Positions 731-23,442 of a DNA stretch of 64,000 nt are shown here, piece after piece. Position 1 is the first letter of the stretch. The number at the start of each line of letters is the position of its first letter. A program made the translations under genes and the position numbers. The stretch comes from a virus. The notes beneath the pieces were generated by a model, which worked only from the letters and a program-made list of their open reading frames with translations, ran no database searches and had not been told where the DNA came from. The stretch spans positions 1 to 64,000 of the IMG/VR virus record IMGVR_UViG_3300045988_146036. One strand, 5' to 3'.

Positions 731-928
731 TTATTCCGCAATGTTTTCAAGAATACAACGCAAATATTGCTCATCCTCTCCATATGGTAATTGCCACTTA
801 AAATCATAACTACCATTAGGCAATTCCTGCATTTCATAGTCAACGCCTGCCAGCTTGCAAGCGGCTATTGCTGCATAAATGTAACCACTGCTAATATTAA
901 GATATTCATATGTTTGTTCATATTTCAT
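731..928 (-). CDS. hypothetical protein (65 aa)
   Basis: ORF only. Confidence 0.35.
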   Translation of the reverse strand: MKYEQTYEYLNISSGYIYAAIAACKLAGVDYEMQELPNGSYDFKWQLPYGEDEQYLRCILENIAE

Positions 929-947
929 ATACCATTACCCCCCTAAT

Positions 948-1175
948 TTATTTATTATCCCATACTTCTCTATACCTTGACTGCGCATATGCAATATTGC
1001 CGCCATCAATAATGATATACTCTATTTTGCTTTCACGTCCTCTTACAATAATTACATTGTGTTTATCAATTAATACATAACTGTGCAATTCATTCTCAAT
1101 GAATGACTTAATTGGTATCATTCGTCTTTCACTCTGCACGTTTACAATATGCTTTTTATTCTGCTTCGCTTTCAT
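948..1175 (-). CDS. hypothetical protein (75 aa)
   Basis: ORF with AAGGAGG RBS; promoter at 1234-1262 upstream. Confidence 0.4.
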   Translation of the reverse strand: MKAKQNKKHIVNVQSERRMIPIKSFIENELHSYVLIDKHNVIIVRGRESKIEYIIIDGGNIAYAQSRYREVWDNK

Positions 1176-1233
1176 TTAATAGCCTCCTTATGTAATCAGT
1201 AGTACCTTCATTTCCTTTAACTACCTTGACTAT

Positions 1234-1262
1234 ATAATACCATAGTTCCTATATACTGTCAA
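1234..1262 (-). promoter_or_regulatory. sigma-A type promoter TTGACA-N17-TATTAT
   Basis: Minus strand reads TTGACAgtatataggaactatggTATTAT. Confidence 0.5.
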
Positions 1263-1316
1263 GCACTTTTTATAAATTTGCAAGAAAAAATGCAGTAAAT
1301 AATTACCGCATAAGCT

Positions 1317-1556
1317 CTAATCATTGTACATATCGTACAACAACTCCAAATGATTTTTAAGGTTTAAATCAAAAAGCTCCATTAAACACTCAACTTCAAT
1401 AAGCTTTCTAGTAATTACCTTTTCATTTCCTCTATAAAAGGGACTATTTGTCTTTCCAGATACTTTATACTCTCTACGTGTCTGATAAGCACGTTCTAAG
1501 GCAATCAAGCTATGATGAAGTTTCAAAAATGCTTTTTCTTTAACGTCGTTTTTCAA
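1317..1556 (-). CDS. hypothetical protein (79 aa)
   Basis: ORF only. Confidence 0.35.
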   Translation of the reverse strand: MKNDVKEKAFLKLHHSLIALERAYQTRREYKVSGKTNSPFYRGNEKVITRKLIEVECLMELFDLNLKNHLELLYDMYND

Positions 1557-1642
1557 TTTAATTCCTCCAGTTCTTTTACAAAATCATAAATACCAAAAAG
1601 GATAAAAGGATAAAAGGTATATAAAATGCTCCTACCAAATAC

Positions 1643-1669
1643 TCTCCGTGGTAAATCATCCACAGAGAG
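1643..1669 (-). terminator. possible hairpin terminator downstream of the 1718-2203 gene
   Basis: Inverted repeat ctctccgtgg/ccacagagag (9 of 10 bp) with 8-nt loop, then a modest T-rich stretch on the minus strand. Confidence 0.3.
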
Positions 1670-1717
1670 ATTTGGAAAGTCAGCAGTATAAACACAAAGT
1701 ATATAGCCAACAATAAT

Positions 1718-2203
1718 TTATTCAATATCAATGTACCCCCAAGGTGTTTCCTCTACCCCTTCGGAAATTTCATTATACACCTTATCATGCAAGCTTTTTG
1801 TAATTGCCTCATTGTCATAAACATATGAGATTAAATCTTTGCCATAAAACTTGCAATGTTTTACCTCGTAATCTAAGTCATTGCAGCTCCAACAAAGAAA
1901 GTTATAAGGTGTTGCATAAAACAATGCGTTGATAAGGTCTTTATCATAACTATCATAAGCATACTCCAAGAAGTTCATAGCGTTTTCAAGAGTTACACCG
2001 CCTCCCATATCACCGAAGGAAGTTTCTGTAATAACTCCTGCAACTCCGTCTACATTTTTAACATTAAAGATGTGTTTCAAGTCTACTTTCAACTCATCCC
2101 AATCTGCATAATTAAGCAAGTTAACATTATCTTCCTTGCCGTTAAGAGTAATGTTTACATTAATAAATGCGTCTGTTTTCATTGTTAAATACCTCGCTTT
2201 CAT
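1718..2203 (-). CDS. acidic hypothetical protein (161 aa; true start probably the second ATG, MKTDAF...)
   Basis: D/E-rich ORF; the first ATG lies only about 12 nt from the -10 of the promoter at 2215-2243, so the downstream ATG with a GAGGT RBS is the likelier start. Confidence 0.4.
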   Translation of the reverse strand: MKARYLTMKTDAFINVNITLNGKEDNVNLLNYADWDELKVDLKHIFNVKNVDGVAGVITETSFGDMGGGVTLENAMNFLEYAYDSYDKDLINALFYATPYNFLCWSCNDLDYEVKHCKFYGKDLISYVYDNEAITKSLHDKVYNEISEGVEETPWGYIDIE

Positions 2204-2385
2204 TTGATGTGTCTATTATAGCATCTTAAAAACCGTTTGTCAACACTTATTTTTGAAAAAGCTTCAAAAATTATTCGGTACAAACATATTGTTGCAAAAA
2301 CGCCGCTTATAAAAAGGTGCGCTTTGAATGTAAGAATCACAATAGCTGCCATACATAGAATTAAAATAAAAATAATATAATTCAT
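2200..2385 (-). CDS. small membrane protein (61 aa)
   Basis: N-terminal hydrophobic helix MNYIIFILILCMAAIVILTF; GGAGG RBS. Confidence 0.4.
   Translation of the reverse strand: MNYIIFILILCMAAIVILTFKAHLFISGVFATICLYRIIFEAFSKISVDKRFLRCYNRHIK
2215..2243 (-). promoter_or_regulatory. sigma-A type promoter TTGACA-N17-TATAAT
   Basis: -35 at 2238-2243 and -10 at 2215-2220 (minus strand). Confidence 0.55.
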
Positions 2386-2414
2386 TCTACCCTCCTATAA
2401 AAATTCCCCTTATC

Positions 2415-2443
2415 AGTCTAACACGTCAAAGGGGAATTGTCAA
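2415..2443 (-). promoter_or_regulatory. possible promoter with TTGACA -35 and weak -10 (TAGACT)
   Basis: TTGACAA at 2438-2443 on the minus strand; -10 is poor. Confidence 0.3.
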
Positions 2444-3172
2444 TTACAAATAGCTGTCTGTATCTAAACAATAAAATGCATCATATAATAAGTAGAAATC
2501 TCCTGCTTCCTTTGTAAATTCCCTGTCAAAATGATAATGTCCAAAGAACCATTTAAACTTATGATTTTTTGTACATAAATGTTTATATAGCTTTTCTAAT
2601 TGTTTCGTAGAAATTGTTGGCTGCACACTGTCAATACATCTTGCTACATATAAATCTGTAAGAATAGATGTAGGACAACAATGTGTTATAATGCAGTCTA
2701 CATTATCAGAATTTTTTATAGCGTTTTCAACTTCTACATCTTCAATCGTTTCCTGTTCCCACCAGGATAAGTTTGGCGTTCTAAGAAATTTATCATGTGA
2801 CTCCGCTCCACCTAAAGCAAGGAATTTTTTGCCGTCAATGAGGAAGCTTTCACCACGTACTAAATGATAACATTTATTACATAGTTTTTGTACCTTACCT
2901 CCCCAACGCTTTGTAATTGGAAATTCTTTGTAATCATTCAATCTTGCAAAGTTTTCGTGGTTTCCGTCGCAGAAAAGCACTGTACATTTTAGTTTCTGTA
3001 TAAAAGCACGTAATCTTTTCTTCTCATCTAAAACACCCTTCTTTAAAGAAGAATGTGTCCATACCCAACCAAAATCTCCGCATATAATTAGGAAATCTTC
3101 TGATTTAAAATCAACTCCGTCAAACTTCCAAGTATCAAAATTTTGGTGGATGTCGCCTGTAATATAAATCAA
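2444..3172 (-). CDS. calcineurin-like metallophosphoesterase
   Basis: Motifs GDIH...GDFG...GNHE typical of the MPE superfamily. Confidence 0.65.
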   Translation of the reverse strand: MIYITGDIHQNFDTWKFDGVDFKSEDFLIICGDFGWVWTHSSLKKGVLDEKKRLRAFIQKLKCTVLFCDGNHENFARLNDYKEFPITKRWGGKVQKLCNKCYHLVRGESFLIDGKKFLALGGAESHDKFLRTPNLSWWEQETIEDVEVENAIKNSDNVDCIITHCCPTSILTDLYVARCIDSVQPTISTKQLEKLYKHLCTKNHKFKWFFGHYHFDREFTKEAGDFYLLYDAFYCLDTDSYL

Positions 3173-3658
3173 TTAGCACCCCTCCATATTAAGCTTTTTC
3201 CACTTCTTAATAATTCCCTTCAAAGGAAATACACAGTATCCCATTTTTTCCAAGGAAATAAGAATGTGTCTTTTATCTCTTAAAGCAGGTTTATCATGTA
3301 AATGTCCATGAATATTTACATCTTGCGAAAAACGCTTTAATGGTTTATGTGTAAAAATAATATTAATTCCCATATAGTCCATTGTAAATGAATCACATGC
3401 AAAGTCAAAGACTTTCATAAAAGCCTCGCAGGAATGTTTATCGTGATTTCCTCTTACAAGAATCTTTCTTCCATGCAATTTTTCAAGAACACTATAATCA
3501 TTTCGCCAAGAAATATCCCCTAAGAGAATGACAATATCTTCATCCTTTACCTGCTTATTCCAATTTCTAATAAGCTTTCGTTCATAATCTTTTGGGCGCA
3601 AACCGCTCTCAATCATCATATCATGGTTGAAGTGCGTGTCAGCTACAAGATAAATCAT
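3173..3658 (-). CDS. calcineurin-like metallophosphoesterase (second, tandem)
   Basis: Motifs ADTHFNHD...LGDI...GNHD; start abuts the stop of the upstream gene. Confidence 0.65.
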   Translation of the reverse strand: MIYLVADTHFNHDMMIESGLRPKDYERKLIRNWNKQVKDEDIVILLGDISWRNDYSVLEKLHGRKILVRGNHDKHSCEAFMKVFDFACDSFTMDYMGINIIFTHKPLKRFSQDVNIHGHLHDKPALRDKRHILISLEKMGYCVFPLKGIIKKWKKLNMEGC

Positions 3659-3897
3659 AATATCCCCCTTATCTTCAAATAAAGCTCCACAGGCATATAA
3701 ATAGACTGATTGTATGGGAGTAGCGTCACAGCCGTTAGCTGCTTCTTTTCCTCCGTTTCAAGCTCATTCCTATGTAGCTCGAATAAACAGTTAATTAAGG
3801 AATATAGTTGTTTAGTAGTTGTTACTTTTACAGTAATCATGTTACTGCCTCCTTTCTTTGATATATTAAGTATAACGCAATCTTCACAGAATGTCAA
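3655..3897 (-). CDS. hypothetical protein (80 aa)
   Basis: ORF with 4-nt overlap coupling. Confidence 0.35.
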   Translation of the reverse strand: MTFCEDCVILNISKKGGSNMITVKVTTTKQLYSLINCLFELHRNELETEEKKQLTAVTLLPYNQSIYMPVELYLKIRGIL

Positions 3898-4388
3898 GCA
3901 TTAATATTATATCCCTCTATATGCGCCAGCTTACTTAAATCTAAGTTGTAATTATCTACAAAACCTTTTAACAAACTTTTCCTCAACTTTCTAGGAAATC
4001 TCATAAAATATTCATATGTATTCATATTTAACCAAGCATTTGTTAAAGCTTCTGTTGAGGCCAAGCTAAATACCATGCGTCTAAAAGCATCTTCATATTG
4101 TATTGGTATATCTTCTGTGTAAGACATTTTCCTATACTGCAAATTATGTTTAAAAAGTATATAAAAAGCTTTTTCCTTTAATGATGTGGGAAGTGCATTT
4201 AAAAACTTCTTATAAAAGGCACATACTCTTCTATACCCATAAGCTCTACGCTCAGCATAACTATAAGAAAGACTGTAATCAAAACTATCATACTGTTTAT
4301 AGCGTCTGGAACGCTTATGGTATCTGTTATAGGTACATGACCAATCAAACCAATCCCCACTTTCAAACATATAATCTTCTGCACTCAT
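3894..4388 (-). CDS. hypothetical protein (164 aa), Tyr/Arg-rich
   Basis: ORF with AAGGAGG RBS; promoter at 4411-4439. Confidence 0.4.
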   Translation of the reverse strand: MSAEDYMFESGDWFDWSCTYNRYHKRSRRYKQYDSFDYSLSYSYAERRAYGYRRVCAFYKKFLNALPTSLKEKAFYILFKHNLQYRKMSYTEDIPIQYEDAFRRMVFSLASTEALTNAWLNMNTYEYFMRFPRKLRKSLLKGFVDNYNLDLSKLAHIEGYNINA

Positions 4389-4410
4389 ATGAATACCTCC
4401 TTATGTGCTT

Positions 4411-4439
4411 ATTATAACAGAAAAAGCGCACCATGTCAA
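4411..4439 (-). promoter_or_regulatory. sigma-A type promoter TTGACA-N17-TATAAT (extended -10 TGt)
   Basis: Minus strand reads TTGACAtggtgcgctttttctgtTATAAT. Confidence 0.6.
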
Positions 4440-4449
4440 GTGCGCTTTT
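4422..4449 (-). terminator. rho-independent terminator hairpin overlapping the -35 of the next promoter
   Basis: Perfect 10-bp inverted repeat aaaagcgcac/gtgcgctttt followed by TTTTTCTGTT on the minus strand. Confidence 0.5.
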
Positions 4450-4450
4450 A

Positions 4451-4744
4451 TTATTTTACTTCTTCCCAAGCATGATAAACATATTCTACTTTCCGCACCT
4501 TGCATAATTTAATTGTAGAATTATTCTTATTTAAAGTTGCACCCCAAGTAGTATCTTTATAAACAAAGATAGTATAGCTAACATTACTTGCGTTTAAATG
4601 GGAACCTCCTTTTTCTAGCGCATGTGCTTGTACTGTGTTCCAAAATAAATTACCTTCAATATCCGTAATTAGAATAGTACTCCCATTCTGAATCTTATTA
4701 AATACAATATCAAAGTTATTATCATAGGGAAATTCTGTAATCAA
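4451..4744 (-). CDS. hypothetical protein (97 aa)
   Basis: ORF only. Confidence 0.35.
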   Translation of the reverse strand: MITEFPYDNNFDIVFNKIQNGSTILITDIEGNLFWNTVQAHALEKGGSHLNASNVSYTIFVYKDTTWGATLNKNNSTIKLCKVRKVEYVYHAWEEVK

Positions 4745-5187
4745 TTACACTTCACCACCTTCCACCAATATCGTAAAGCTTTTCCTTCGGGAACGTCTTT
4801 ATCATCAAGCCAAGCTTTTGCAATTTCAACAAATTTTACATCCTCTACAATACCTGCATAATCGCTTGCAATCATATTAAGTGTAAAATACCAATCAAAT
4901 TTATTATATTTTTCCCAACTTAAACCAAGTTTTTCAGCCGCAGCCACACAAGCAGGGAATGTATAAGTTTCCCCTTTAGTGCCGTTTATATTATCCATAC
5001 CTTGTACAGCTTCTGTTGCAAGCTCACTATTAAAATGCTCGCCATAAAGATATGTGTACATTGGATAAAAAGCTTTTTGCATAACAGGCTTTCCAACAAC
5101 TTCTTCAAATTTTTTAAAGAAATTCTCTTGTTCAGTTTTATTAGAAAATTCGTCCATAATAGTATTAAAAAGTTTTAAAGTTTCCAT
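4741..5187 (-). CDS. hypothetical protein (148 aa)
   Basis: ORF; GGAGG RBS. Confidence 0.4.
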   Translation of the reverse strand: METLKLFNTIMDEFSNKTEQENFFKKFEEVVGKPVMQKAFYPMYTYLYGEHFNSELATEAVQGMDNINGTKGETYTFPACVAAAEKLGLSWEKYNKFDWYFTLNMIASDYAGIVEDVKFVEIAKAWLDDKDVPEGKALRYWWKVVKCN

Positions 5188-5189
5188 AT

Positions 5190-5384
5190 TTATACCTCCT
5201 TACGTGTATAGGCTACACCTGCGTATAAATAAACGCTGTCTTTTTGCTCTAATAAGCACTCTAAGACATATTCTTTATTATCAATCACTACTAAAACAGG
5301 TGCGTTCTTTTTACTAATATCTTTAAAAAAATCTTGCACAGTTTTAACACTTAAAGTATCTGGCGTTTTAGTTGGAGTATACAT
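5190..5384 (-). CDS. hypothetical protein (64 aa)
   Basis: ORF; GAGGTGA RBS. Confidence 0.35.
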   Translation of the reverse strand: MYTPTKTPDTLSVKTVQDFFKDISKKNAPVLVVIDNKEYVLECLLEQKDSVYLYAGVAYTRKEV

Positions 5385-5484
5385 TAGTTATCACCTCTTT
5401 CCATTAAATACAGAAGATACAATGTGATACATGCAAAGGCGTAAGAACCAAACATGAAAAAGCAGAATACGTAATTTTCGTCCA

Positions 5485-5718
5485 TTATTTCACCTCAATA
5501 TAAGTCTTGCCAATTTTAAGTTCATTGCAAATTCTATTAAAGTCAAACACCGCTTCTTTATAGCTTGCATACTCTTTAGCTGTCGTAGTATAAAGCCCTG
5601 AAGTCCTAATTTTTAAAGCAGTGTTATTATTAGTGTCAGTGCTTAAAAATACACTTATAACATTCATAAAAATCGTATTATTACAACGAAATATAAACAT
5701 TTTAATTACCTCTTTCAT
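5485..5718 (-). CDS. hypothetical protein (77 aa)
   Basis: ORF only. Confidence 0.3.
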   Translation of the reverse strand: MKEVIKMFIFRCNNTIFMNVISVFLSTDTNNNTALKIRTSGLYTTTAKEYASYKEAVFDFNRICNELKIGKTYIEVK

Positions 5719-6094
5719 ATAAAGACTTGTTCATATTACAAAGTATTCCTTCTTTACGTGTTACCCATGCAGTAACGACATATCCACTCTTTGCAATAAC
5801 ATAAACATAAGACTTAAATCTATCAACTCTTATGCTTATGCAGGCTTTTTCAATTACGCCATTTTCAACATAAACCTCGAAAATATTACCCCTTGTTCTT
5901 GCAATAGCTGCATTTATTTGGGGAATTTTTGTTCTCCCCTTTTTGCCAAGTTGCTGCAAAAAGTGTTTTGAATACGTCAGTTGCGGCAAATTCTTCAAAA
6001 AGCCGTCTAAGTCTAAAAATACTGGAAAATATACATCTTTATGATACCGTTTCATAGTAACCTCCTTTTCTTTGTTACCTATATAGTACCACAT
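5702..6094 (-). CDS. hypothetical protein (130 aa)
   Basis: ORF with GGAGG RBS directly downstream of the promoter at 6083-6111. Confidence 0.4.
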   Translation of the reverse strand: MWYYIGNKEKEVTMKRYHKDVYFPVFLDLDGFLKNLPQLTYSKHFLQQLGKKGRTKIPQINAAIARTRGNIFEVYVENGVIEKACISIRVDRFKSYVYVIAKSGYVVTAWVTRKEGILCNMNKSLYERGN

Positions 6095-6111
6095 TTTCTA
6101 AACATTGTCAA
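6083..6111 (-). promoter_or_regulatory. sigma-A type promoter TTGACA-N17-TACTAT
   Basis: Minus strand reads TTGACAatgtttagaaaatgtggTACTAT, then GGAGG and ATG. Confidence 0.55.
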
Positions 6112-6191
6112 GCACTATTTTTAAATTTATAGGTATTTATACCTACATTCACTTTTGAACGCATACAAGCCAAATCTGCGTGCCTGGGATA

Positions 6192-6222
6192 TATAAATAA
6201 AGAGTGCTCCGTTAGGAGCACC
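6192..6222 (-). terminator. rho-independent terminator of the flotillin gene
   Basis: Hairpin gtgctcc-gtta-ggagcac followed by a T-run on the minus strand. Confidence 0.55.
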
Positions 6223-6230
6223 CTTGCTAA

Positions 6231-7676
6231 TTAAGACTTTTTAGCTGCATTTTTAACAGGAATTGCTCCTTTAATAGCAACATTCTTATTAACCTTTGCA
6301 TCAATGGTATTTGCGTCTGCAATAGCTTTCAAATCTACACCAGTAGCAGATTTCATGGTATCAAAAACTTGCGCCATAACAGTAGGGGTATTTCCTGCCA
6401 AAGTGCTAACATCACCATTGCCATACACTTTCATTTCCTTAATGTTGGAAAGCGGTGTTGCAATAGCCTTTGCAACTTCTGGGAGAACCTTAATAGCCAT
6501 TTCAGCCATAGCTGCCTTGCCATACTCTTTCATAGCCTCTGCTTTTTTCTGCAAAGCCTCTGCTTCTGCCAAGCCTTTTGCTTTAATAGCCTCTGCTTCT
6601 GCCAAACCTTTTAATCGAATAGCTTCTGCTTCCTTTTCAGCACTATATTTCAAAGCTTCTGCTTGTTTTTGCTGTTTAGCAAGTTCTGCCTCTGCATTTT
6701 GTTTAGTAACAAAAAGGTCTGCTTCTGCCTCTTTTTCACGGCGATACTTTTCAGCATCTGCTTGTCTGCGTACTGTTGCATCTAAGCTCTTTTCTTGTAC
6801 CTTTGCTTCCTGCTCTTGCAAAGCTACTTCTTTTTCACGCTGCGCAATTTCAGCTTCCACCATACGTGTTTTAAGAATCTTATCTTGTTCTGCTTCTTTA
6901 ATGTTGTAAGCTGCGTCTGCTTCTGCTTGCTTAATGTCTGCCTCTTGTTTAAGTTCAGACTTACGAATTGCAACTTCATTCTGTTTTTCTGCAATTTGTT
7001 TAGCACTGTTCATTTTTGCTTCATTAGCTCGTTTATCTGCTTCTGCTTGTGCAATTTGAACATCACGTTCAGCCTCTGCTTTAGCAATTTGAGCTTGCTT
7101 ACGAATTTGTGCGATATTGTCAATACCTAAATTGTTAATAGCATCACAATCATCTGTAATAGACTGAATATTGAAAGACAATACTTCAATACCAAGTTTT
7201 CCCAAATCTTCAACAGCACTGGACTGTACTTTATCAGCAAGCTTTTGGCGGTCATTTACCATTGCTTTTAATTCCATAGAACCTGCAATATCACGCAAAG
7301 AACCTTCCAAAATTTGACGTGCAGTAACTTCGATTGCATCTTCATCACGATTTAAGAAGTTGACACATGCAAGTTTAATGCTTTCAGTATCATTCTTAAT
7401 CTTTACAGTAGCAAAAGCATCCAAGTTGACGTTGATATAATCAGTTGTTGGTACAGAATCTGATGTATTAACATCAACATTTACCAAACCAAGATTAATA
7501 TAGTCAAGACGCTCCAAGAAGGGAATTTTAAAACCTGCTTTACCAATATAGATACGTGGCTCTTTAGAGAAGCCGCTTACAATACCTGCCATATCAGTAG
7601 GGATTTTAAAGTATCCCTTAGTAAAAATAATCATAAGTGCAAATAAGATAATAATTCCTGTAATAATAAGTACCAA
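6231..7676 (-). CDS. flotillin / SPFH (band-7) family membrane protein
   Basis: N-terminal TM helix, SPFH-like core (PFLERLDYINLGLVNVDVN...), and a long Ala/Glu/Lys coiled-coil with AEAEA repeats typical of flotillins; TTG start. Confidence 0.7.
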   Translation of the reverse strand: MVLIITGIIILFALMIIFTKGYFKIPTDMAGIVSGFSKEPRIYIGKAGFKIPFLERLDYINLGLVNVDVNTSDSVPTTDYINVNLDAFATVKIKNDTESIKLACVNFLNRDEDAIEVTARQILEGSLRDIAGSMELKAMVNDRQKLADKVQSSAVEDLGKLGIEVLSFNIQSITDDCDAINNLGIDNIAQIRKQAQIAKAEAERDVQIAQAEADKRANEAKMNSAKQIAEKQNEVAIRKSELKQEADIKQAEADAAYNIKEAEQDKILKTRMVEAEIAQREKEVALQEQEAKVQEKSLDATVRRQADAEKYRREKEAEADLFVTKQNAEAELAKQQKQAEALKYSAEKEAEAIRLKGLAEAEAIKAKGLAEAEALQKKAEAMKEYGKAAMAEMAIKVLPEVAKAIATPLSNIKEMKVYGNGDVSTLAGNTPTVMAQVFDTMKSATGVDLKAIADANTIDAKVNKNVAIKGAIPVKNAAKKS

Positions 7677-19369: not shown

Positions 19370-20440
19370 CTATAACTTCTCAACAATCTCCATAAACAGT
19401 TCTTGGTTCTCTCTTAATTTAGCAACTACATTGTCCTGTCCTTGCCCCAACTGCTCACCATTATAATAGAACCAACCACCACGGCGCTCAATCAAGCCTT
19501 TAGACATTGCAAGAATAACTAACTCTTTGCCTGTATCAATGCTTCCTCTTGGAAGTAGTGCATCATCTACATAAAGGTCATATTCTCCGTCACTAAAAGC
19601 CTTACCTGTTTTATTTTTCTCAATCTTCCATTTAATAACCCTTCCTACGGTTCTAGCATTTACGCCAGTACCCTCACGAATAATATCACCTACACGTGTA
19701 CGAATCTCAATAGCATTGGTGAATTTTTGGCTACTACCTCCAGGTGCGTACAATGGATTACCATAAGCACCAATCTTTTCACGTAACTGATTAATTGCCA
19801 ATAAAGTAGTAGGCAATTTACCATTTCTTTCTAAGGAGTTGTTAATACTTTGAAACTTGCCATGAAAAACATTTAAAGCCTTTGCCCTAAGTCCCATCTG
19901 TACAGTGTCCTCTTGGTCTGTTTCAATCTCTTTAGTAGGTAGCATTGCTGCAATACTATCAATGACAATAAATTCAACCCCAGCACGTTGGAGAGCACAA
20001 GCAAGGTCTAAAGCCTGTTCCATACCCTCTGGCTGTACAAAGATTAATCTGTCATTATCAATGCCGTGGACTTCGCCCCAGTCTGGGGAATAACTACCAC
20101 ATTCAAGCTGAATAAGTGCTGCGGTTAAAGGAGTGTCACCGTCGTCTGCAACAACCTCATAAGCATCTACACCTTCCCCAACCAATTTTTTGCGCAGATT
20201 CTGCACAGCAGCAATAGCTTTATAAGCAAGTAAGCTTTTACCACTGCTTTCCTGTCCAGCAAGTGTGATATAACGCCCACTCGGAAGTCCACCACCCAAT
20301 GCGTCATTTAAACCAACACTGCCTAATGGAATTTTAAAATTCATATCTTCTCTAATATTTCGTCCTAATCTTATTGCATTTGTACCAAACTTCTTATTAA
20401 TATCTTTAACTAATTTATCAATTTCTACCACTATTTTCAC
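19370..20440 (-). CDS. recA: RecA/UvsX-family recombinase
   Basis: LPSGRYITLAGQESSGKSLLAY Walker A in a RecA-like context (RecA has GPESSGKT). Confidence 0.7.
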   Translation of the reverse strand: MKIVVEIDKLVKDINKKFGTNAIRLGRNIREDMNFKIPLGSVGLNDALGGGLPSGRYITLAGQESSGKSLLAYKAIAAVQNLRKKLVGEGVDAYEVVADDGDTPLTAALIQLECGSYSPDWGEVHGIDNDRLIFVQPEGMEQALDLACALQRAGVEFIVIDSIAAMLPTKEIETDQEDTVQMGLRAKALNVFHGKFQSINNSLERNGKLPTTLLAINQLREKIGAYGNPLYAPGGSSQKFTNAIEIRTRVGDIIREGTGVNARTVGRVIKWKIEKNKTGKAFSDGEYDLYVDDALLPRGSIDTGKELVILAMSKGLIERRGGWFYYNGEQLGQGQDNVVAKLRENQELFMEIVEKL

Positions 20441-20443
20441 CTC

Positions 20444-20956
20444 TTATTTTGCATCATAATAACTATGCCCATAATCTGGGACTGCCTCCAAAGGAATTGT
20501 CAGATTTATGCCACGTTCCTGTAAACAATGTTCCATATGATATTGTAAACGCTCCATTCCAAGTTCCACGTATTTGGTTGGACACATTAAGCCTAACTCA
20601 TCGTGTACATTTAAGAATAAGTATGCACCTATTGCTTTAAGCACTGGGTCGCGGTCAACATCTAAGGTAGCAAACATTGCTACGTCCCCACCTGCACCCT
20701 GGCTCATTACATTTACCGCCACACGTTCTAAGTAGGAAGCTACTCTCTTATCACTGCTGTTAATATCCCATAAATGCCTTTTATGCCCACCAAGAGTCTT
20801 TACAAACCCATTTGACTGTGCAAAACGTATTACAGCTTTATCATAAGTATGCAAACCATAGAAACCTTCAAAATAACGGTCAATGTATTTCTGTGCTGTC
20901 TTTTGGTCTACATCCAAATTCTTACTTACTGCAACAGAAGTGCCGCCATAATCTAC
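20444..20956 (-). CDS. DNA polymerase I (family A), exon 2 (C-terminal; motif B tail and motif C)
   Basis: VDYGGTSVAVSKNLDVDQKTAQKYIDRYF aligns to Taq VLYGMSAHRLSQ...IERYF; VHDEL is motif C; the frame is open upstream of the tool start back to 20956. Confidence 0.7.
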   Translation of the reverse strand, partial: VDYGGTSVAVSKNLDVDQKTAQKYIDRYFEGFYGLHTYDKAVIRFAQSNGFVKTLGGHKRHLWDINSSDKRVASYLERVAVNVMSQGAGGDVAMFATLDVDRDPVLKAIGAYLFLNVHDELGLMCPTKYVELGMERLQYHMEHCLQERGINLTIPLEAVPDYGHSYYDAK

Positions 20957-21699
20957 CAGTCCGTTGTCCAGTATTACTACTGGTGTCAGACTATGCCTTT
21001 AGAACTCGCTGCCAGTAAAAACCATATATTTTAGTTTTATTTCTAATAGCCACTCTAATACCACTTGTATCTTTAGGAAAGTAACCAAGGCTATTTAAAA
21101 ACTTTAACACACTCTCTTTACTAACCAACGTATGTAATACATTACCATCACAATCACAAAGTAAATAGGTAACTGCATGATGCTCTTTTTGATGGCACTT
21201 CTTACATAATACTTGCAAGTTTGTATCTTCATTATTTTGCCTATTACCATCCCTATGATGTACCACTAAGTTCTTTATACTACCGCAAATCTCACATTTT
21301 GCCCCGTCAATTTTTGCCTTTAGAGGATAGCCCTTTATTCCATTCTTATAGAATGGCGAATCCTTACCTTTAGGCTGGGCATTATGTAAAAACCCACGGC
21401 TTTCACGGTCTTTAAAACGTGCATATCTTAACTTAGCTTCATATTTACAGTATACACAAAATTTTTGATTACGTCCAGTAGGAATATAATAATTCCCACA
21501 ATATTCACAAACTCTTTCTTTCATAGTTCATGTTCCCCATTAAATGTATTCGTAAGATTTATACTTAAAGTATAGCGATACATTATAAGTCGTTACACCG
21601 TCTTTTTACAAAGAAATTCGGCACGGCGTTGACCATTAAGTTATGGCAATCTTAATGGCTTTCACCGTTATGAGAGGAATTTTACTTCACCATACCTTT
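20957..21699 (-). mobile_element. group I intron (743 nt) carrying an HNH homing endonuclease, splitting the polA gene
   Basis: Exon 1 ends GGC TTC GCT (5' splice site after U, followed immediately by an in-frame stop KGMVK*); exon 2 starts GTA GAT TAT GGC after ...CTG (3' splice site after G). The predicted spliced junction KKIGFA|VDYGG restores pol I motif B. Confidence 0.65.
20991..21524 (-). CDS. HNH homing endonuclease (intron-encoded)
   Basis: N-terminal zinc ribbon CEYCG...CVYC; HNH motif LVVHHRDGNRQNN...CKKCHQKEHH. Confidence 0.75.
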   Translation of the reverse strand: MKERVCEYCGNYYIPTGRNQKFCVYCKYEAKLRYARFKDRESRGFLHNAQPKGKDSPFYKNGIKGYPLKAKIDGAKCEICGSIKNLVVHHRDGNRQNNEDTNLQVLCKKCHQKEHHAVTYLLCDCDGNVLHTLVSKESVLKFLNSLGYFPKDTSGIRVAIRNKTKIYGFYWQRVLKA

Positions 21700-23442
21700 A
21701 GCGAAGCCTATTTTTTTTGCAATTTGCCTTTTAGCAGGCTCACGCTTCTTTACATCATTCGGATTCATGTTTGCAAGCTCTGGAAAAACGATAGTTGCAA
21801 CTGTACCATGCGGGTCTAAGTTCTCTCTCAACATCTTTAAAAGCATCTTATCTTGTGACAAATGCGCCGTTAAGTATTTCTCCAAAGCATGATAATCACA
21901 AGCTATTACACTATAACCCTCATCAGCTATAAACAGCTTTCTTATTTCAAACCGTTCCCAAAAGTCAAAGTAGGTTCTATCTTCACCCGCTTTCGGCTCT
22001 TCTAGTGGGTGCGGCAGCTGCTGGAGGTTTGGGTATTGACTACTTAATCTATAAGAATCCGTGCCACAAATATTGAAGCTACAATGGACTTTACCATCAC
22101 TATAAATATTCTCCCTTAACCCTATCATAAATGCACTAATAAGTTTAGAAAGTTTTTTATAAGTTACAAGCTCTGTAATAAAATCATGTGCTTTTGCATC
22201 AACATTCTTCTGCTTTAAAAGAGCTTTTAAAATATCCCCACCTGTTTTCGGCGTTTGTAACTCTTCATAACCATATTTACCACCTGTTGTAAACTCTATT
22301 GGTTTAAAACCAAAGTTTACGTCTACTAAATTATTATTGCAAGATTCTACAAACATTACCTGTGAAGGCTCATTCATATACAAGTTTTTAAGCTTAGTTT
22401 TTTCAGTCGTAGTGTATCCAACACTTTCCATTTCAAAGGCATTTTGTGCGCTTGGAGTAAGCCTCATAACTTTCTTTTTAAAGCCAAAAAGGATTTCATA
22501 AAGATGTTGTCCACTATCGGGATTAAACTCTACCCCTGTCAAAGAAAACATTTTATATTTAGAGTTTTCTAATTCTTTCTCTGCAAGTTCCTGCATCTTA
22601 TCAAGGGCAGCAATATCTACACTTACACCTTTTCTTTCCATTTTCCAAAGTGCTTTCATAAAAGGCATACGGCACTTAATATACATATCATAAGAATCAT
22701 CTTCTCTTAGACCTTTTTCAAGCATTGGATACATTTGCTTCATAAACCAAACGTCCTCGGCTGAATACTGCGCTCCGATTGGAATTTGAACATGCTGAAA
22801 GCTTGCATTATTAGTAGCCTTTAAACCCTGTGAAAGCTTTTCTTCTTTAGTAACAGTTTTAATGGTATCACTATAATGTGACTTTTCAACTTTAAAAATC
22901 ATCTTAGTAACACTTTCAAGATTCTTTTCTACATTCTCATCTAGTGTATGCACCATTATTTGTGTATCTTGAAAAGTGTTTACATCAAAGACTTTATAAA
23001 TATCAATTCCTTCATTAGCTAGTAAATGTAAATCATAATCTTGATTATGCGCAATGTATTCTTTACCACCGCACTCCATAATAGATTTAAGTTCTGCTGC
23101 AAACTTAAAAGAGTCTACGTTATAATAAGTTCCTTCAAATTTTTCTGGACAAAAATCTAGGAACTTTTCAAGCTGTGCTTTCTTCAAGAAAGAGAATCTG
23201 CCATTATCCTCATATTTTCCCTCGAACACGTGTCTTACAGGAACATAAAAAACATCTTTAGATGTAGCATCATCAAAAGCAAATGTAAAGCCTACTGTAT
23301 AATCTTTACCCACAGCACGTACATTTAACCCGGATGTTTCAGTATCCCAAAAGACTTGTCTTGCACTTTTAAATAGATTTAAAAAGGCACTTAGAGTACC
23401 TTCTTGAACAATATTTAATTTAAAATACTTTTGGTGATACAT
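21700..23442 (-). CDS. DNA polymerase I (family A), exon 1 (3'-5' exonuclease domain through motif B start)
   Basis: Exo I motif VFWDTETSGL; ends RQIAKKIGFA (motif B RxxAKxxNFG). Confidence 0.7.

Follow-up and report, generated by a model that had tools for sequence, protein, structure and literature searches.

The question raised by this locus is whether three neighbouring open reading frames (ORFs), which gene callers present as separate genes, are indeed three genes or the scattered pieces of a single one. The locus lies in a stretch of 64,000 nucleotides (positions 1 to 64,000 of the IMG/VR virus record IMGVR_UViG_3300045988_146036), hereafter the window, where a family A DNA polymerase gene (polA) on the minus strand is divided by an insertion of 743 nt. 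We consider it highly probable that this insertion is an IA-type group I intron bearing the gene of an HNH endonuclease in its loop L8, and that it splices and homes as we infer from its sequence and its relatives; the interrupted gene would then really encode one 751-aa family A polymerase together with an intron endonuclease, and not three ORFs. Group I introns are well-known selfish elements in phages, and HNH-bearing ones have been known in phage family A polymerase genes since SPO1. The elements of the locus are as follows.

23442..20444, minus strand: the whole family A DNA polymerase gene, exons and insertion
21700..23442, minus strand: polA exon 1, codons 1-581 (from ORF, translation and Pfam)
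20957..21699, minus strand: predicted group I intron, 743 nt, phase 0, starting AAAGGUAU and ending ...GGACUG, with omega-G at 20957
20991..21524, minus strand: intron HNH endonuclease ORF, 177 aa, in loop L8
20444..20956, minus strand: polA exon 2, codons 582-751 plus stop, from VDYGG... to ...YYDAK*; Pfam DNA_pol_A from profile position 219

The two halves of the polymerase

Exon 1, with GGAGG upstream of its ATG, covers the 3'-5' exonuclease domain and the polymerase domain as far as the O-helix, ending ...KKIGFA, and is matched in Pfam by DNA_pol_A_exo1 and by DNA_pol_A up to profile position 216. The ORF to which it belongs (23442..21682, minus strand, 586 aa) has the C-terminus ...KKIGFAKGMVK*. 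Exon 2 is an open frame from 20956 to the stop at 20444, reading VDYGGTSVAVSKNL..., of which the annotated 157-aa ORF begins only at an internal TTG (20917); ahead of that TTG, 13 codons in, there is neither an in-frame start nor a Shine-Dalgarno sequence of its own. Both the N-terminal ORF and the in-frame open region ahead of the C-terminal ORF had been pointed out in an earlier note made from the letters of this DNA, whose coordinates proved exact.

Joining the exons after GCT (21700) and after the G of CTG (20957) excises exactly 743 nt, 21699..20957, as that note had counted, and gives the predicted junction ...ATAGGCTTCGCT joined to GTAGATTATGGC... and a product of 751 aa containing ...KKIGFAVDYGG...YIDRYF. 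The unspliced gene yields two half matches to DNA_pol_A (112.5 and 106.1 bits, profile positions 55-216 and 219-380), and the joined protein a single stretch over positions 55-380 at 234.2 bits. Motif B of the joined protein, for which an alignment to Taq polymerase had been proposed, aligns without a gap to Bst Pol I (query RQIAKKIGFAVDYGGTSVAVSKNL), with K576, F580 and Y584 falling on the O-helix of the latter, and the Taq polymerase chains are matched at about 7e-40. The best polymerase match among deposited phages is that of Bacillus phage BCD7, at 32% identity.

Alleles of the insertion in related phages

Protein-guided searches of IMG/VR and metagenome contigs gave 15 related polymerase loci, in which the allele state at residue 581|582 was mapped by tblastn.

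Uninterrupted at 581|582: L002, L029, L030, L033, L039
234-nt insertion without an ORF: L003, L036
426-nt insertion: L001 (4744-5169), L028 (4244-4669), L034 (5417-5842)
743-nt insertion: L032, with 15 differences from the window copy

The 30-nt flanks on both sides of the site are identical between the uninterrupted L029 and L039 and the interrupted L003 and L036, the empty site reading AGATAGGCTTCGCT|GTAGATTATGGGGGC in L029, so that the junction proposed earlier, after the U of GCT and the G of CTG, is fixed by the intron-less alleles. The boundary cannot slide, because the first base of the insertion (A) differs from the first base of exon 2 (G) and its last base (G) from the last base of exon 1 (T); it lies after a U at the 5' side and after a terminal G at the 3' side. 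Group I chemistry requires a 5' splice site after U and a 3' splice site after G.

The arrangement recurs on five or more independent assemblies (54-105 kb) drawn from different samples, with the same three separately called ORFs (586, 177 and 157 aa) on all of them; since at least five assemblies share it, and since relatives are empty or shorter at the identical nucleotide, it is far more than chance. Both exons are open-framed and 96-99% identical to those of relatives. The three 426-nt copies carry a 317-nt deletion in the HNH ORF, the ATG being directly followed by TAA, and retain an intact ribozyme; here the endonuclease has clearly decayed while the intron persists. Between the window and the L003 lineage the intron core is 87% identical and the exons only 64-67%.

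A search with the HNH protein brought to light homologs at 57, 55 and 47% identity, every one of them between two polA halves and at the same intron position (L045, L046 and L047). The polymerases of L046 and L045 are 52-60% identical to that of the window, with the junction ...VGFA|VDYGG; those of L047 and L048 are about 27% identical, with the junction ...GNFA|KVYGQ, and across the inferred junction of L047 the Pfam stretch continues. The intron family is thus found at one and the same O-helix position even where polymerase identity falls to about 27%. Taken together, empty, ORF-less, intact-ORF and ORF-deleted alleles at one nucleotide would be the pattern expected of a homing element.

The L047 locus has peculiarities of its own: its very divergent family A polymerase gene (781-3669) holds a shorter, 137-aa HNH protein in the intron, in its exon 2, downstream of the O-helix, roughly 60 aa are inserted that the Pfam profile lacks, and the first called gene of the locus has a Pam3_Gp34 Pfam match.

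The predicted ribozyme

The features of the proposed fold are listed below, all on the minus strand; in intron numbering (n), the window coordinate equals 21700 - n.

21685..21706: P1 hairpin, by direct sequence reading; exon CUUCGCU (21706..21700) paired with the internal guide GGUGAAG (21691..21685, intron 9-15), 7 bp
P2: absent
21530..21684: 5' ribozyme domain, from the match to model R1 (below) and compensatory changes
21679..21674 / 21538..21533: P3 (intron 21-26 / 162-167)
21668..21663 / 21628..21623: P4 (intron 32-37 / 72-77)
21659..21651 / 21640..21632: P5 (intron 41-49 / 60-68)
21622..21597: P6 and P6a (intron 78-103), with a GUAA loop
21591..21585: P7 5' strand, GACU-U-AU (intron 109-115)
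21583..21544: P7.1/P7.2 (intron 117-156), a nested two-helix element
21529..21525 / 21006..21002: P8, GAACU / AGUUC (intron 171-175 / 694-698), closing the ORF-bearing loop L8
20957..21001: 3' ribozyme segment, from the Rfam alignment of the homologous L003 and L001 segments
21001..20995: J8/7, UAAAGGC
20994..20989: P7 3' strand, AUAGUC (intron 706-711), containing the UAG stop of the HNH ORF
20983..20968: P9 hairpin, CCAGUA-GUAA-UACUGG (intron 717-732), followed by the tail
20957: omega-G (intron 743)

The core helices P3-P9 stand in canonical order with the P3/P7 pseudoknot, and every core pair is intact in the window copy. The terminal U.G wobble of P1 at the 5' splice site and the intron-final G are present in all copies. 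In the window copy GUA of exon 2 can pair with UAU at the 3' end of L1 (21694..21692); in L047, exon 2 reads AAAGUUUA and L1 reads UAAACUU, and in the other copies exon 2 reads GUAGAU and L1 ends AUCUAU or AUUUAU, so that the change of L1 that tracks exon 2 in L047 is, to judge from these sequences, P10 pairing. The P7.1/P7.2 extension and the lack of P2 point to an IA-like architecture; subgroup IA is the usual type in phages.

A covariance model, R1, built from the 5' domains of L003, L045, L046 and L047 only, and hence excluding the window sequence, found a single full-length match in the 64-kb window (21684..21530, minus strand, 145.8 bits, E = 2.5e-33), the next best reaching 12.8 bits. 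With introns at other sites in the relatives R1 scores only about 19 bits, wherefore these must be regarded as different introns. The 234-nt copy of L003 matches Rfam RF00028 (Intron_gpI) over the full model (positions 1-253, 37.6 bits, E = 4e-8), and the 426-nt copy of L001, whose core differs from that of the window by one base, matches it at 21.9 bits (E = 0.003). An unconstrained fold of the L003 copy recovers P1, P3, P4, P5, P6, P7.1/7.2, P8 and P9 (z = -2.55). An alternative 3' helix, AGUCUG/CGGACU, which competes with P7 in minimum-energy folds, was set aside after inspection by eye, as it cannot form in L045.

Two short-sequence searches of IMG/VR extended the family no further: the core 17-mer GTCAACGCCGTGCCGAA matched 14 other contigs, all by chance in GC-rich coding DNA, and AAGGCATAGTCTGACAC returned two known relatives only.

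Compensatory changes between intron copies were counted in two alignments. In a MAFFT alignment of the four copies at site 581, 272 of 272 cells pair and 8 pairs are compensatory, a result reached by 0 of 500 shuffles and compared with 0-1 in slid controls. In an alignment of five divergent cores, 97.9% of cells pair and 26 of the 74 pairs are compensatory, covering 37 cells; again none of 500 shuffles reaches the observed value, and slid controls give 1-5. This second alignment, made by hand under guidance of the structure with each row checked against the real sequence, replaced a MAFFT alignment of the five cores in which P5, P6a, P7.2 and P8 were misaligned, and its five sequences represent few independent events. 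Compensatory changes in the five copies occur in P3, P5, P6, P6a, P7.1, P7.2, P8 (4 of 5 pairs) and P9 (5 of 6 pairs); P4 has one-sided changes only, with one mismatch in L046. The group I intron put forward in the earlier note has accordingly gained a recognizable P3-P7 core, with a full-model Rfam match in L003 and covariation in five copies.

The HNH endonuclease

In the 177-aa ORF, a CxxC...CxxC zinc ribbon at the N-terminus precedes an HNH core (CEICG...VVHHRDGNRQNNEDTNLQVLCKKCHQKEHH), and about 60 aa at the C-terminus make up a further domain. Among PHROG families it is matched by HNH endonucleases (3.8e-13), and it holds the beta-beta-alpha-metal HNH motif, complete with the catalytic His-Asn-His residues and a second zinc site; H89, H90, N102, H111 and H115, the cysteines C77, C80, C107 and C110 and the zinc ribbon are invariant in its homologs. 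Between the window and L032 the ORF differs by 7 synonymous and 4 non-synonymous codons. The most similar proteins from deposited phages, at about 37% identity, are encoded by HNH genes of Enterobacterales phages, and its best sequence match in the PDB is I-HmuI (1U3E), over about 30 residues of the HNH motif only (E = 0.027). The AlphaFold2 model has a pLDDT of 75 and a pTM of 0.40. The loci L005-L011, which came from an HNH-based search of IMG/VR, are distant HNH genes in unrelated contexts.

The earlier note was right to place an HNH ORF within the insertion, and the HNH motif is there; the ORF is not free-standing, however, but embedded in L8, its AUG directly following the 5' strand of P8 and its end (...QRVLKA*), over the last five codons and the stop, overlapping the 3' strand of P8, J8/7 and the 3' strand of P7. 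The sole purine-rich run upstream of the AUG, GGGGAA, forms the 3' strand of P3 (21533-21538). Since GGGGAA is part of P3 and the AUG abuts P8, ribozyme folding may, speculatively, keep translation of the endonuclease in check. In L045 and L046 the HNH AUG lies inside the 5' strand of P8 (window counterpart 21522-21529).

Proposed mechanism and competing explanations

In the mechanism that we propose, the intron would fold in the pre-mRNA into P1 and P3-P9 with the P3/P7 pseudoknot and the P7.1/P7.2 extension; an external guanosine would attack after the U of the P1 U.G pair, omega-G would then dock in P7, and the exons would be joined with the help of P10, giving an mRNA that encodes the 751-aa polymerase, its O-helix intact (...KKIGFA-VDYGG...). 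The HNH enzyme would nick or cut, close to the site of insertion, the polymerase allele that lacks the intron in a co-infecting relative, and repair from the copy with the intron would pass the intron on.

Several observations weigh against this interpretation, in which splicing, nuclease activity and specificity are inferred from sequence. Rfam gives no match in the window (20300-22300 at E <= 1; the whole window at the gathering threshold and at E <= 0.05), because the 534-nt ORF sits in L8; L032, with the same ORF-bearing intron, has no Rfam match either, and the score of L003 (37.6) is below the curated gathering threshold of 50. The Rfam search for an IA2 or IC intron that the earlier note had suggested was fruitless in the window itself, and matched in relatives; the architecture is IA-like and not IC. 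The fitting of the five-copy alignment to the structure by hand inflates the pairing counts, and P1 and P7 are invariant across copies, which is consistent with the model and lends it no support from covariation. P10 has only 3 contiguous bp in the window copy, the weakest of a range of 3-7 bp. As for the endonuclease, its Pfam scores lie just under the cut-offs (HNH_3 23.3 versus 24.8; HNH 19.2 versus 21.4), and Foldseek of the model against the PDB gave nothing at E <= 0.001 and only weak HNH nucleases.

Genes of T4-related phages can be split by free-standing endonuclease genes, and the locus might likewise consist of a free-standing HNH gene between two polymerase halves that are translated separately and assemble. 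The HNH ORF does have its own start and stop, and the callers annotate three ORFs on every assembly; exon 2, however, lacks a start or Shine-Dalgarno sequence until the TTG, and starting there removes half of the O-helix motif. Moreover, such a split gene leaves unexplained both the ORF-less 234-nt insertion at the same nucleotide in a relative and the covarying group I fold formed by the non-coding flanks of the ORF, and we regard it as very improbable. An equally small chance attaches to a group I intron that is dead, the polymerase being a pseudogene in a defective or assembly-chimeric genome. That splicing is a prediction, that P10 is short in the window copy and that the ORF has decayed in relatives would all suit this view, whereas the intact core pairs of the window copy, the open-framed exons that are 96-99% identical to those of relatives and the identical arrangement in five independent assemblies of 54-105 kb speak against it, and the decay seen in relatives takes the ORF and spares the ribozyme. 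An intein or a group II intron in place of a group I intron seems to us almost out of the question: relatives do have an intein elsewhere in the polymerase gene, after residue 460, but stop codons in the exon frame occur five codons into the present insertion, and for group II there is neither a reverse transcriptase ORF nor a group II Rfam match, while the RNA matches the group I model.

Insertion site and relation to known introns

The position of the group I intron was converted to Escherichia coli Pol I numbering through landmark residues, for which we take R465 to be R668, F580 to be F762, Y584 to be Y766, Q667 to be Q849 and H699 to be H881. On this basis the site corresponds to E. coli 763|764, inside the O-helix. 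The polymerase intron sites that we found reported are 674 (SPO1, SP82, Bastille, Pf-WMP3), 676 (phiL7) and 881 (PhiI, W31) (PMC3428280), and our literature searches, whose coverage is incomplete and which do not by themselves prove novelty, turned up no intron described at the O-helix or motif B. A tblastn search with a junction-spanning query gave matches in 900 of 50,697 deposited phage records, and 834 of them cover at least 80% of the query in one place; no interruption at 581|582 appears among the 60 matches listed of these 900. Site 763|764 would thus add a fourth to the three that we found reported for family A polymerase genes.

The earlier note had suggested aligning the spliced ORF to the polA of SPO1 or Bastille-like phages; the present intron is not the SPO1/Bastille one. 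The SPO1/Bastille-type introns are likewise polymorphic among related phages, and some relatives of the present phage hold a different intron at that site; those introns, however, lie at E. coli 674 (PMC3428280) and the present one at 763|764. The present HNH protein carries a zinc ribbon at its N-terminus and resembles I-HmuI only remotely, the match extending over about 30 residues; it appears to be of a distinct lineage.

Parallels are also offered by the introns of Pf-WMP3, PhiI/W31 and phiL7, which are also phage polA group I introns with HNH endonucleases. The cyanophage Pf-WMP3 intron, with I-PfoP3I, is assigned to subgroup IA2, and splicing has been demonstrated for all of these introns and nicking for I-PfoP3I (PMC3428280). 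From these cases it is clear that introns target several conserved sites in family A polymerases (PMC3428280). They differ from the present intron in their insertion sites and in their HNH lineage. According to PMC11878797, polymerase genes of Bastillevirinae and of the sister subfamily Twortvirinae hold up to three introns, with HNH, GIY-YIG or LAGLIDADG ORFs or none, and covariance models often pick up ORF-containing introns only in part. The polymerase gene of Bastillevirinae is a comparable hotspot, a comparison that concerns the number of introns and the types of ORF, and the present phage belongs to a different, uncultured lineage.

A further proposal, which we put forward tentatively and hold to be rather less likely than not to be correct, is that the O-helix, between E. 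coli F762-G763 and L764-Y766, constitutes a previously undescribed homing site, and that the intron/HNH family has crossed lineages whose polymerases are about 27% identical; because of this crossing, the endonuclease would have to recognise DNA that codes for the near-universal motif F-(G/A)-x-x-Y-G. If this were true, the element might invade polA genes over a very broad range and might double as a weapon against co-infecting phages that lack the intron, as does the intron endonuclease of PhiPA3 (PMC11620839); an HNH enzyme specific for O-helix-coding DNA would also be a possible new nicking enzyme. For annotation, the locus illustrates that three called ORFs can mislead and that Rfam at default thresholds misses the intron entirely, and the metagenomes provide an unusually complete snapshot of the homing cycle, from empty through ORF-less and intact-ORF to ORF-deleted alleles.

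Other elements in the polymerase genes of the clade

The polymerase gene of this clade has one intein site and four intron sites, occupied in differing combinations, and would be a good natural system for the study of competition among selfish elements and between related gut phages. The elements other than the site-581 intron are listed here.

L031:3881-5053, L032:3881-5050, L034:3881-5050, L037:3878-5035, L038:3878-~5040: in-frame insertion after ...SFNICG
L035:3914-5011, L038:~5052-5298, L041:~1398-2414: group I-like intron at E. coli 674
L031:5678-~6512, L034:6104-~6938, L041 and L043 ~3830-4664: group I-like insertion at E. coli 850
L037:5717-6030, L037:6148-6478: further insertions, at the 850 and 881/882 sites

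The in-frame insertion, of about 386-391 aa, starts CLEGNTLIP..., contains a YYADGC block and ends ...SHN, with T following; it resembles an intein that bears a LAGLIDADG-type endonuclease, lies at E. coli 663|664, and is absent from the window, where the equivalent position is codons 460/461 (about 22063|22062). The site-674 element, a group I-like intron different from that of the window, follows residue 471 (...SQYP|NLQQLP); it carries a LAGLIDADG-like ORF in L035 (YYYAGLIATDGY) and is ORF-less in L038, where it matches Rfam at 38.4 bits (E = 2e-6). The site-850 insertion, after ...MSQG at residue 668, has a GIY-YIG-like ORF in L031, L034, L041 and L043 and none in L037. A last, ORF-less group I-like insertion stands beside the HD of VHDE, at about E. 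coli 881/882 and near the PhiI/W31 site. The insertions at 850 and 881/882, whose boundaries are approximate, score 25.9-32.8 bits in Rfam.

Beside the polymerase gene of L041, a recA-like gene (4959-6534+) encodes 705 aa as against 353-356, with Pfam matches to Intein_splicing and LAGLIDADG_2, which points to an intein in this RecA; the RecA gene of the window (19370..20440) is uninterrupted.

Genome context

The window encodes a terminase, portal, capsid and tail proteins, a DnaB-like helicase, a DnaG-like primase, RecA, a Cas4-like nuclease and ligases, and is, judging from related contigs, part of a tailed-phage genome of roughly 100 kb. No nucleotide match to deposited phages was obtained for the gene, the intron or 24.5 kb of structural genes. 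Elsewhere in the window, a 481-aa protein with SPFH/Band 7 and flotillin domains (Pfam 2.4e-26 and 4e-9) is encoded at 6231-7676 on the minus strand.

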